Source: Escherichia coli (GTDB lineage Bacteria > Pseudomonadota > Gammaproteobacteria > Enterobacterales > Enterobacteriaceae). Taken from it: DNA of 64,000 bases. The stretch lies in assembly GCF_041248615.1 (NCBI RefSeq), contig NZ_CP158426.1; one strand, given 5' to 3'. The translations under genes were made by a program, and so were the position numbers. The notes below the pieces were generated by a model. That model ran no database searches. It worked only from the letters and a program-made list of their open reading frames with translations, and was not told where the DNA came from. Below are positions 24,866-25,900 of the stretch, one piece after another (position 1 is the stretch's first letter; each line of letters opens with the position of its first letter).

Positions 24866-24915
24866 TTCAAAATTCGACGAATTAACGATATTTGTCTGAT
24901 TAATAATCAGACCGG

Positions 24916-24955
24916 ATTAATGTTGGTGTATTTATTACACCAGCATTAATTTTCC
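24916..24955 (+). terminator. Rho-independent terminator candidate after ykgMO (attaatgttggtgta ... tacaccagcattaat, then T-run)
   Basis: Inverted repeat followed by TTTT, read from the sequence. Confidence 0.55.
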
Positions 24956-25900
24956 TGAGGATGTATCTTCCTGTTCATTTAAGGTCAACTGCCTGACGTT
25001 TCTCTCCGAATATTCCATTATATTAATGTTGACTTGTTGACCAGGTGCGCCCTGTATGCTGGCATCAACTCTCTTTTAGACTGAACACGCCACTCAGTTT
25101 CCTCCCTTTGCGACGCAGCCTGCATTTACACTCAAACGGTTAAGATGATAAATGTGGTAAATCTGTTGGTACTGACATAAAAACGTTTACGCCACAGGAA
25201 CGGCCTGATCCACCGGTAACCCCATCGCCGACGTTCGAGTGCCAGTTAGAGTAACGCGCACAGATGACTGAATGCAGTGCCCTGGCAAAGAGGCCATCGT
25301 TCCTGTGACAACTGGCAGTCTTCGTTTAACTTCACTTAATTTGGCTCTTAGGGGGCTTACCGGACAGATGACGTACTTACACCTGTTTAATTTTTCATCA
25401 CTTATTGGGATGAACACCCATAACCATTTTGTGCGGCATGTTAATCCATTAAAACACCTTACTGATTGGCAAATCATCTTTAATTATGACTCATGATAGT
25501 TTTATATTCTATTTCTTATCATTTAAACTTGTTTTTTTACTAGTCCATTACACAACACATTAAGACTATTCCTAACACCTCAGGGCAAAGTTCCTGGCTA
25601 ATATAAAATGCAAGTAAGAATTGAACGTTATATTGCCAATAACCTTATGAAACTGAATGTCTTTTTCTTCTTATCAAAAAAGCAATATTTTCATTTTTTG
25701 TAAATATTGACTTAACCATGGAATTCCTTTTCTGTTCACATATTGACACTCATCAGGAAAAAAACATAAATTTAAACCTAATCGAAATAATTAAAACTTA
25801 ATCTCGTTTAACCTATATTGATATGTGCTACGTATCTTATTTACTTCCGATTTACTAAAGAAACTGAATGTACCTGTAAAAATTACAGGTTTGGAAAGTA

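Follow-up and report, generated by a model that had tools for sequence, protein, structure and literature searches.

The DNA analysed here, referred to as the window, is a stretch of 64,000 nucleotides of Escherichia coli (assembly GCF_041248615.1, contig NZ_CP158426.1). In this window the genes ykgM (24459-24725) and ykgO (24722-24865), which make up the Zur-regulated ykgMO operon, are followed by ecpR as the next accepted gene. The gap between ykgO and ecpR measures 1035 bp up to the K-12-style GTG start of ecpR and 1083 bp up to a conserved ATG at 25949. By far the longest run of the 64 kb that is free of ORFs of 100 or more amino acids extends from 23531 to 25900 (2370 bp; the runner-up has 855 bp). 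The preliminary description of a long ORF-free region is thus confirmed as far as the gap is concerned, but RefSeq annotates the gene ykgL inside it, and mechanical ORFs of 96 (minus strand) and 74 (plus strand) amino acids are present. Its statement that the segment is AT-rich near ecpR and GC-balanced near ykgO agrees with the GC profile, namely, 0.46 over 24958-25400 and 0.29-0.31 over 25401-25948 as compared to a window mean of 0.50, to which it can be added that the first 92 bp 3' of ykgO are likewise AT-rich (0.30). The segment is single-copy, was found in 5067 of the 5426 complete E. coli genomes, and is present here as a B2/E-type allele with about 93% identity to K-12. Inspected as a possible relic of a mobile element or repeat, it occupied a median of one place per genome, and a phage similarity search returned no match. 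A plasmid origin was rejected: the 16 full-length plasmid matches of at least 90% identity, listed or counted, correspond to K-12 F-prime-size replicons or chromosome-size records and were read as chromosomal DNA, a reading that covers these 16 matches and leaves aside 22 weak ones (60-80%; Klebsiella, Pantoea, and others).

The 3' untranslated end of ykgMO (24866-24957, plus strand) contains three hairpins, the last of which resembles an intrinsic terminator in that a stable 17-bp stem-loop (24914-24952) is followed by the U-tract UUUUCC right after the last gene. This end has a folding energy of -38.1 kcal/mol (z = -6.7), and none of 200 shuffles was as good. In the K-12 allele, one U.G pair of the terminator stem is changed to U-A. 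A simple terminator scan made no call at this 3' end owing to the AT-rich stem and the short T-run, and the same two traits also make the efficiency of the terminator uncertain. The published finding that zinc chelation induces 'ykgL' together with ykgMO suggests read-through, and the hairpin terminator is probably leaky. The sole Rfam match in E-value mode, folP-motif with E = 0.43, fell on these hairpins and was taken as chance.

On the opposite strand, ykgL (K-12 b0295; 24900-25125, minus strand) is reduced by a frameshift to a remnant of 35 codons, and in the identical ETEC1738 sequence RefSeq marks it as a frameshifted pseudogene. Its translation has 75 amino acids in K-12, 63 in O157, and 35 here; in the comparison sequence L005 the ATG is absent and a 40-bp insertion is present. 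About the last third to half of ykgL corresponds to the ykgO terminator hairpins in reverse complement. A search of 5.8 billion proteins retrieved ykgL homologues confined to Escherichia (42-103 amino acids), which for a protein of about 70 amino acids fall into 113 separate 90%-identity clusters and form no family. The only precomputed Pfam mark among the matches was a stray one, PF01197 (ribosomal L31), carried by a single ykgL match of 68 amino acids. The same wide search with the gap ORFs yielded only Escherichia hypotheticals of variable length, and Pfam and NCBIfam held nothing for the query ORFs (ykgL, 25272-25496, and 25368-25496). The pN/pS ratio of ykgL is 0.26-0.35 among pairs of 75-amino-acid alleles (0.35 on 22 changes for K-12 versus L018) and about 1 against the O157 allele, values (0.3-1.0) that rest on few sites; the lower ones leave slight room for coding constraint in the lineages with the 75-amino-acid form. 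Taken together, the ykgL ORF is most likely non-functional.

Two other ORFs were rejected as genes. ORF74 (25272-25496, plus strand; once EDL933_RS29425 and since dropped from RefSeq) is reduced to 32-34 amino acids in K-12-type alleles and has lost its start in four alleles, and the small ORF at 25368-25496 (42 amino acids) is terminated after 2 codons in L018 and shows 8 amino acid changes per 14 nucleotide changes versus K-12. Neither a frame maintained under purifying selection nor homologues beyond the lineage were found for ykgL or for either of these ORFs. Translated comparison of the gap by tblastx gave nothing against the Klebsiella and Pantoea loci and favoured no frame against L005. 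The earlier remark that the ORFs of this region are short and implausible is therefore borne out, as none of them is conserved, whereas its suggestion of a gene relic is not supported, the ORFs being Escherichia-only and family-less, with a ykgL that varies from 35 to 75 amino acids and lacks its start in L005.

Transcription start sites (TSSs) were taken from a published Cappable-seq study of O157:H7 EDL933 that covers 8 conditions and reports 5' ends only (PMC10469882, Tables S4 and following); the EDL933 allele of the gap is 98.6% identical, and its TSS coordinates were transferred to the window. Such mapping had been proposed as a check on the region, and it gives starts on both strands of the gap. 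An unannotated plus-strand promoter at 25125-25171 consists of TTTACA (25125-25130) and TAAATG (25149-25154) spaced by 18 nt, with a TG at -15/-14, and has TSSs at 25139, 25154, 25161 (main), and 25171. The main start (EDL933 344486) was detected in 8/8 conditions, 344476 in 7/8, and 344493 and 344508 in 4/8 each, and the cluster at 25139-25171 was not differentially expressed across conditions (PMC10469882). The promoter block hardly varies across 13 E. coli alleles and matches L005 at 33/40 positions, a conservation that is by itself non-significant (p = 0.11). A promoter that is active in all conditions and kept across E. coli would be odd for pure noise.

Downstream of this promoter lies a GC-balanced spacer (25162-25344) that is transcribed on both strands and under no detectable constraint: over 25162-25561, divergence from L005 reaches 37%, as compared to 27% at 4-fold sites (p = 1.5e-5 for greater). 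No stable or conserved RNA structure was found in the spacer (z of -0.8 and +0.2 for the two strands of 25160-25400), its nested inverted repeats I11-I13 of 10-11 nt are not kept in L005, and a terminator at 25340-25400 is absent in all three lineages compared. An Rfam search of the gap returned no small-RNA family. The small RNA envisaged in the preliminary description is thus reduced to transcription: starts exist on both strands in EDL933, and the one at 25161 provides a defined primary 5' end, but a defined 3' end, a stable or conserved fold, a terminator, and a known family are all absent, and the body is unconstrained. On the minus strand, TSSs cluster at 25441, 25475, 25497, and 25505 (EDL933 344206, 344172, 344150, and 344142) and appear mostly in salt conditions (PMC10469882). 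They point to ykgL and ykgO, facing away from the ecp promoters and towards the 25161 transcript, with which their own transcripts would overlap by 270-340 nt. This cluster fits the listing of the ykgL-ykgO pair as a convergent excludon in MG1655 (PMC12288877).

The AT-rich ecp/mat regulatory region extends from about 25345 to 25948, as judged by conservation, composition, and published H-NS data. Homology to Klebsiella stops near 25345 and spans about 520-600 bp before the ATG; the proximal part is kept in Pantoea as well. Over 25562-25841, divergence from L005 is 18% as compared to 27% at 4-fold sites (p = 3e-4). The GC content of the last 550 bp before ecpR is 0.27-0.36 in 7/7 loci despite a different upstream neighbour, and a long, AT-rich upstream region has been conserved among ecp operons. 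A footprint of Escherichia, Klebsiella, and Pantoea shows that the boxes described below, the -35 and -10 elements, the Shine-Dalgarno sequence, and the ATG are kept. The distal edge of this ecp-linked conservation (25353-25441) is formed by TTACCG.A.AGAT (25353-25366) and CC.TTTTGTGCGGC (25426-25439). The latter is invariant in the 13 E. coli alleles and L005, and both are kept in 4/5 Klebsiella species, though 4-fold sites are more than 50% diverged there. The HFVRH codons over TTTTGTGCGGC were considered as a protein signal and dismissed: Klebsiella reads this motif in a different frame, which places the conservation at the level of DNA. The distal 480 bp of the gap are not known to be part of the described ecp regulatory region.

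A further element of this region, at 25561-25596 on the plus strand, was identified by pattern match and conservation. It comprises the RcsAB-box-like sequence TAAGACTATTCCTA (25561-25574), which holds a TTCCT box (box 1, 25569-25573), and a second TTCCT box (25591-25595) 22 bp beyond the first, and is situated about 190-210 bp upstream of the ecp TSS at 25780. The pattern has 2 matches in the 64 kb, with 0.11 expected. TAAGACTATTCCTA fits the RcsAB box consensus TaAGaatatTCctA, reportedly that of Wehland and Bernhard 2000, at 13/14 positions, and a promoter activated by MatA-RcsB follows downstream of it. The element is invariant in the 13 E. coli alleles, is kept from Escherichia to Pantoea, and forms the near-palindrome TTAAGA-N4-TCTTAA in Klebsiella. 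Two distal TTCCT boxes are reportedly bound by EcpR (Martinez-Santos 2012). The segment 25561-25596 is presumed, from its sequence, to be the EcpR(MatA)/RcsB activation site; the assignment of boxes to binders draws on conservation and on the reported role of the TTCCT boxes. Reviews describe activation of mat by MatA-RcsB and repression by H-NS. Between the TTCCT boxes and the core promoter, a consensus scan placed the best candidate site for IHF, AATGAAAATATTG (25683-25695, minus strand), with one mismatch; a perfect IHF consensus was not found in the region.

The ecp core promoter (25743-25780, plus strand), of the sigma-70 type, is the top promoter-like site of the scan, matching at 10/12 positions. 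It consists of TTGACA (25743-25748) and TAAATT (25767-25772) spaced by 18 nt, with an A7 tract (25759-25765) in the spacer, and both boxes are kept in Escherichia, Klebsiella, and Pantoea. EDL933 TSS 343867, which has identical -35 and -10 boxes, maps to 25780, 121 nt upstream of GTG 25901. The published TSS reportedly lies at this same distance from the originally annotated ecpR start. A second ecpR start at 25846 (EDL933 343800), 103 nt before the ATG, was detected more often than 25780, namely, in 5/8 conditions, and its relative read score rose from 6.3 in LB to 75 in LB with salt. In LB, little ecpR mRNA and only a low ecpR TSS signal are seen, and both rise more than 10-fold with salt, whereas the distal TSS at 25161 stays flat. 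From TSS 25780, the 5' leader comprises 169 nt (25780-25948), with the Shine-Dalgarno sequence GAGG at 25936-25939. The K-12 GenBank model starts ecpR at GTG 25901 (196 amino acids) and RefSeq PGAP at ATG 25949 (180 amino acids). All nine species-level sequences keep the Shine-Dalgarno sequence and ATG 25949, and a stop breaks the GTG frame in L005 and Klebsiella. Judged by this conservation and the PGAP model, the true start of ecpR is ATG 25949, and the non-coding stretch therefore has 1083 bp. The fold of the leader has a z of -1.9 and is not conserved; a pairing that would hide the Shine-Dalgarno sequence was rejected, as it is not kept in Klebsiella.

The proximal part of the gap coincides with a published 'promoter island', 310529_398 (ecpR/ykgL, U00096.2), which after transfer of its K-12 coordinates occupies 25534-25931 of the window (PMC3661553, Table 1). 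Its H-NS entry 'A' signifies that, in the K-12 allele, it was bound in all ChIP-chip studies compared (PMC3661553), so that AT-richness (GC 0.29-0.31) and in vivo H-NS occupancy, the latter from published K-12 data, coincide here. In Klebsiella pneumoniae, an hns mutant showed derepression of ecpA and the assayed pilus regulatory genes, and the qPCR primers include ecpR (PMC4746245). The H-NS high-affinity motif TCGATAAATT is not enriched in the region and is absent from the island. The label 'promoter island' was not reproduced by a simple scan because promoter-like sites show no excess (6 found versus 7.0 +/- 2.1 in shuffles) and hence no high density; the original claim used another algorithm, PlatProm. 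Experimentally, 7 TSSs fall within 25441-25846 when both strands are counted together, among them an orphan start at 25612 seen in EDL933 only in exponential phase with salt (PMC10469882). The idea of an extended regulatory region with nucleoid-protein binding is thus supported by the H-NS island of about 400 bp, on which published ChIP-chip data place H-NS (PMC3661553), by the derepression in the Klebsiella hns mutant (PMC4746245), and by the conservation of about 520-600 bp; transcripts are present, and conservation is not restricted to the promoter-proximal part.

The gap is hence real but largely explained, mostly by known biology, and its only loose end is the set of unannotated transcription starts. 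It is probably not one element but a composite intergenic region in which the control region of the ecp (mat) fimbrial operon meets the Zur-regulated ykgMO operon. Transcription of ykgMO would end at the hairpin terminator, probably with some leakage, and ykgL on the opposite strand, frameshifted here and largely the reverse complement of that terminator, would most likely have no function. The weak constitutive promoter at 25161 fires rightwards, and the roughly 400 bp that it reads into are unconstrained; its transcript is probably untranslated and stopped by Rho and/or H-NS short of ecpR. From about 25345 on, the AT-rich DNA is coated and silenced by H-NS. EcpR/MatA and RcsB may then bind the RcsAB-like/TTCCT boxes some 200 bp upstream, and an IHF-type bend may carry the bound complex to the sigma-70 promoter (TSS 25780, with a second at 25846), which would drive ecpR-ecpABCDE via a leader of 103-169 nt. 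Upon relief of silencing by salt, the promoters of the island would fire both ways, and the minus-strand starts at 25441-25505 would make the 'ykgL' transcript.

Several other readings of the distal half were weighed. The 25125-25154 promoter may make a functional non-coding RNA, either an sRNA acting in trans or a cis antisense switch together with the 25441-25505 transcripts. Its TSS seen in 8/8 conditions, the retention of the block in 13/13 E. coli alleles and at 33/40 positions in L005, the 270-340-nt overlap of the convergent starts, and the published repression of matA by Hfq in EPEC argue for such an RNA. We nevertheless consider it unlikely, given a transcribed body that diverges faster than 4-fold sites, a fold z of about 0 on either strand, a terminator in 0/3 lineages, inverted repeats that are not conserved, no Rfam match, and a p of 0.11 for the promoter block alone. 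It also appears improbable that the constitutive rightward promoter (25125-25154) and the salt-induced leftward starts (25441-25505) form a convergent sense/antisense module on the distal border of the H-NS-silenced island that tunes the relief of silencing or yields an undescribed regulatory RNA; such a module would add an extra RNA or transcription-interference layer to the EcpR/MatA motility-adhesion switch.

The start at 25161 points to ecpR with no predicted terminator in between, and a long upstream region is conserved among ecp operons, so it could be a distal ecp promoter whose read-through of the H-NS island modulates silencing or gives basal ecpR expression via a leader of about 790 nt. 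The repeat D2, which relates 25124-25153 to the core promoter (25742-25771) with 70% similarity, points the same way, but for families of two copies, chance alone can give 30 nt at 70% identity. Moreover, ecpR rises more than 10-fold with salt against a flat distal TSS, and the segment has no Klebsiella homologue, which renders this possibility quite unlikely. It is very unlikely, finally, that ykgL encodes a genuine small protein, perhaps as a young, Escherichia-specific gene that is intact in phylogroup A/B1-type alleles and has decayed here, in which case part of the region would be a gene relic. It is annotated in K-12, named by PGAP, intact in its 75-amino-acid form in several alleles with a pN/pS of 0.26-0.35 between them, and has TSSs of its own upstream. 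Yet it occurs in three length classes within one species (75, 63, and 35 amino acids), has no start but a 40-bp insertion in L005, has a pN/pS of about 1 against the O157 allele, and belongs to 113 family-less clusters at 90% identity found only in Escherichia; the terminator hairpins, read in reverse complement, supply its C-terminal third, and its induction follows that of ykgMO, as read-through would.

ECP/Mat fimbriae are the most widespread adhesin of E. coli, and EcpR/MatA also turns off flagella; knowledge of the exact content of the ecp control region aids the reading of strain differences in colonisation. The additions made here are modest, namely, the ecpR start at ATG 25949, a conserved control region of about 520-600 bp that is common to Klebsiella, and a distal 480 bp that is unconstrained filler with an annotated, doubtful gene and with unannotated promoters derived from published TSSs. 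They leave the accepted picture of the ecp locus unchanged.

This region has parallels in known systems. As in convergent excludons and bidirectional terminators, the ykgL-strand and ykgO transcripts overlap at common hairpins, but these lack a U-tract on the minus strand, and a regulatory consequence of the overlap is not in evidence. Like an RcsAB box, TAAGACTATTCCTA lies upstream of a promoter under MatA-RcsB and is palindromic in Klebsiella; however, the partner here is MatA instead of RcsA, and the candidate site, at about -210, is exceptionally distant from the TSS. The proximal 400 bp or so are one of the 78 promoter islands listed by Shavkunov/Ozoline (PMC3661553), and they share with these the AT-richness, H-NS binding, several TSSs on both strands, and the link to horizontally acquired genes, but contain a genuine, conserved, and regulated promoter, whereas islands are described as largely unproductive. 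The nanC-fimB and fimE-fimA regions, present in the same table (PMC3661553), are likewise long AT-rich intergenic regions that control a fimbrial regulator through nucleoid proteins and distal activator sites; the ecp region differs in having no invertible element or recombinase, a repeat search having detected no such flanking inverted repeats, and in its activation by a LuxR-type autoregulator together with RcsB. The closest counterpart is the ecp/mat region itself (Martinez-Santos 2012; Lehti 2012/2013; Pannen 2016): it is the same locus, directly upstream of ecpR-ecpABCDE and syntenic with ykgMO, with a promoter 121 nt before the GTG, two far-upstream TTCCT boxes, AT-rich and H-NS-silenced DNA, and induction by salt, acid, and low temperature. 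There is no difference in kind between the two, the promoter spacer being 18 bp here and 19 bp in the K-12-type allele.

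The gap between ykgO and ecpR, the latter also known as matA, is a mosaic composed of a terminator, a doubtful ORF, an orphan promoter, neutral spacer and the known H-NS-silenced ecp control region. Genes are arranged in the order ykgM (24459-24725), ykgO (24722-24865), gap, ecpR/matA, ecpA. The preliminary description of an ORF-free gap ending at 25900 stands in that the gap is real and that 23531-25900 is the longest interval in the window to lack any ORF of 100 aa or more. However, RefSeq annotates ykgL on the minus strand at 24900-25125, where this allele has a pseudogene, and the conserved ecpR start is ATG 25949 instead of GTG 25901, so that the gap measures 1083 bp. 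The Shine-Dalgarno GAGG and ATG 25949 are kept in all species examined, and neither Klebsiella nor L005, a divergent Escherichia locus, maintains the GTG 25901 frame, which is lost or stopped there; judged from sequence, the 196-aa ecpR/matA model in the K-12 GenBank record, with its GTG start, probably includes 16 codons too many. The 1035-bp segment up to 25900 is 100% identical to strain ETEC1738 and occurs, as a single copy in each, in 5067 of 5426 complete E. coli genomes. All high-identity "plasmid" matches (H137-H146) are chromosomal DNA, namely, chromosome-size records filed as plasmids or ~230-kb K-12 replicons, which we take to be F-primes. The GC content is 0.30 at 24866-24957, 0.46 at 24958-25400, and 0.29-0.31 at 25401-25948, with 0.50 for the whole window. 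A further gene-poor stretch of ~930 bp (23531-24458) precedes ykgM; ykgR (24002-24103, 33 aa) and the palindrome TGTTATAACATAACA (about 24437-24451), which presumably resembles a Zur box, were located there, and the ykgM TSS of the O157:H7 strain EDL933 maps to 24436.

An EcpR scan of species-representative genomes returned eight loci, namely, L005, five Klebsiella species, one Pantoea, and a second K. oxytoca EcpR-like gene, an ordinary E. coli representative being absent from the output. L005 (NZ_JAATUR010000022.1, SCPM-O-B-8794) is labelled E. coli, is ~11% divergent in coding DNA at the locus and is a separate species representative; its order ykgR-ykgM-ykgO-gap-ecpR is that of the window. 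The second gene of K. oxytoca NBRC 105695 (L012/L007; 58% identity) is found on the same contig ~7.5 kb downstream of ecpR, just beyond the ecp operon. At 4-fold-degenerate sites of the flanking genes, divergence was 5.9% for K-12, 27% for L005, and 53-56% for Klebsiella. Comparison with K-12 within E. coli gave ~7% divergence for the gap, matching the neutral level. Compared with L005, constraint is seen at 25562-25841 (18% divergence, p = 3e-4); 25162-25561, with 37%, has diverged more than 4-fold sites, and 25002-25121 is barely alignable. Klebsiella ecpR has ~900 bp of gene-free DNA upstream, with a divergently transcribed ABC-transporter ATPase as the neighbour; in the Klebsiella alignment, homology starts at ~25345-25426 and runs to the ATG, and none was detected upstream of this limit. 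Since, in addition, the 550 bp directly before ecpR have a GC content of 0.27-0.36 in all seven loci, the ecp operon carries its own control region of ~520-600 bp. The distal ~480 bp of the gap are, by these alignments, Escherichia-specific junction DNA.

Elements conserved between Escherichia and Klebsiella include TTACCG.A.AGAT (25353-25366) and CC.TTTTGTGCGGC (25426-25439), which lie ~500-600 bp upstream of ecpR, beyond any described ecp elements known to us; the latter abuts a minus-strand TSS. Further conserved elements are GTTTTATATTCT (25498-25509), TTAAGACTATTCCTAAC (25560-25576; a TTAAGA-N4-TCTTAA palindrome in Klebsiella), AAGTTCCTGG (25587-25596), CAATAACC.TATGAAA..AAATG (25637-25661), the ecp core promoter TTGACA-N18-TAAATT (25743-25772), and the Shine-Dalgarno and ATG of ecpR. 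The best IHF-like candidate site (25683-25695) has one mismatch. TAAGACTATTCCTA fits the RcsAB-box consensus, a pattern with two occurrences in the window versus 0.11 expected. It includes the first of two TTCCT boxes, spaced by 22 bp, which are reportedly the distal EcpR sites of Martinez-Santos 2012. The other match, TAAGAATAATCCTA (62847-62860), precedes a 297-aa ORF (62927-63820, plus strand) by 67 bp and adjoins a flagellin-like ORF (61578-62558, minus strand); an Rcs-controlled lateral-flagella cluster here would be no more than speculation.

Positions in the published EDL933 Cappable-seq tables (PMC10469882) were transferred to window coordinates at single-base resolution. On the ecpR strand, TSS 25780 corresponds to promoter TTGACA/TAAATT, 121 nt from the GTG; TSS 25846 was present in 5/8 conditions, with a read score that rose from 6 in LB to 75 when salt was added; and TSS 25612 was present in salt only. 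TSSs 25441, 25475, 25497, and 25505 are on the opposite strand, mostly in salt. The A-tract in the core-promoter spacer (25759-25765) varies in length among E. coli: exact matches with K-12-type flanks numbered 2 for A6, 1689 for A7, 947 for A8 (including K-12 MG1655, ATCC 8739, and wild isolates), and 13 for A9, corresponding to -35/-10 spacers of 17-20 bp. The 18-bp (A7-equivalent) spacing is shared by the window, L005, and all other species compared (Klebsiella and Pantoea). Homopolymer sequencing errors could account for the rare A6 and A9 classes; A-tract length may add to strain differences in ECP/Mat expression.

At the ykgO end, three hairpins form in the fold of 24860-24965 (-38.1 kcal/mol, z = -6.7); the third has a 17-bp stem followed by UUUUCC and is therefore read as the ykgMO terminator. 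The hairpin sequence, read as its reverse complement, provides the C-terminal third of ykgL. The suggestion of a gene relic was not borne out, since ykgL relatives in a search of 5.8 billion proteins are restricted to Escherichia (42-103 aa, 113 clusters at 90% identity), no family was matched in Pfam or NCBIfam, its length varies (75 aa for the K-12 allele, 63 aa for that of O157, and 35 aa for B2-type alleles and this one), and other ORFs are broken in some alleles. L005 has no ATG at the ykgL start and a 40-bp insertion there, and pN/pS ranges from 0.3 to 1.0, based on very few sites. We read ykgL as a legacy annotation rather than a decayed gene. That it is a real gene is very improbable; its reported co-induction with ykgMO under zinc chelation in Nissle (PMC12279244) is most readily put down to read-through at the terminator, whose U-tract is short. 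As ykgL-ykgO has also been given as a convergent excludon (PMC12288877), both strands are transcribed at this end.

Of the proposed small RNA, only unannotated transcription is retained. A TSS cluster (25139, 25154, 25161, and 25171) is present on the ecpR strand, and TSS 25161 was unregulated and found in 8/8 conditions (PMC10469882). Its plausible promoter, TTTACA-N18-TAAATG with TG at -15/-14, is invariant in E. coli except for one -35 change in K-12-type alleles. Downstream of 25161, there is no terminator, no stable or conserved fold, no Rfam match, and no conserved ORF; a 74-aa ORF, present in an earlier EDL933 annotation but since removed, is broken in some alleles, as is a 42-aa sORF nested within it. 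We thus give little credence to a functional noncoding RNA or antisense module, despite starts on both strands. A distal ecp promoter would agree with the orientation of TSS 25161 and is also hard to credit: ecpR expression does not track this constitutive start, and its transcript therefore probably stops short of ecpR. The orphan promoter (ATTTACACTCA...ATAAAT, 25124-25153) and the ecp core promoter (ATTGACACTCA...ATAAAT, 25742-25771) have 21/30 bases in common, in register, a resemblance that may be fortuitous or reflect an old duplication.

An extended regulatory region is upheld for the half of the gap next to ecpR. Between ecpR and ykgL lies a "promoter island" of 398 bp (approximately 25534-25931) that was H-NS-bound in every ChIP-chip study compared (PMC3661553). 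According to reviews, mat is activated by MatA-RcsB and repressed by H-NS, and in K. pneumoniae ecpA and the assayed pilus regulatory genes are repressed by H-NS (PMC4746245). The gap is an ordinary regulatory intergenic region, and a largely documented one.
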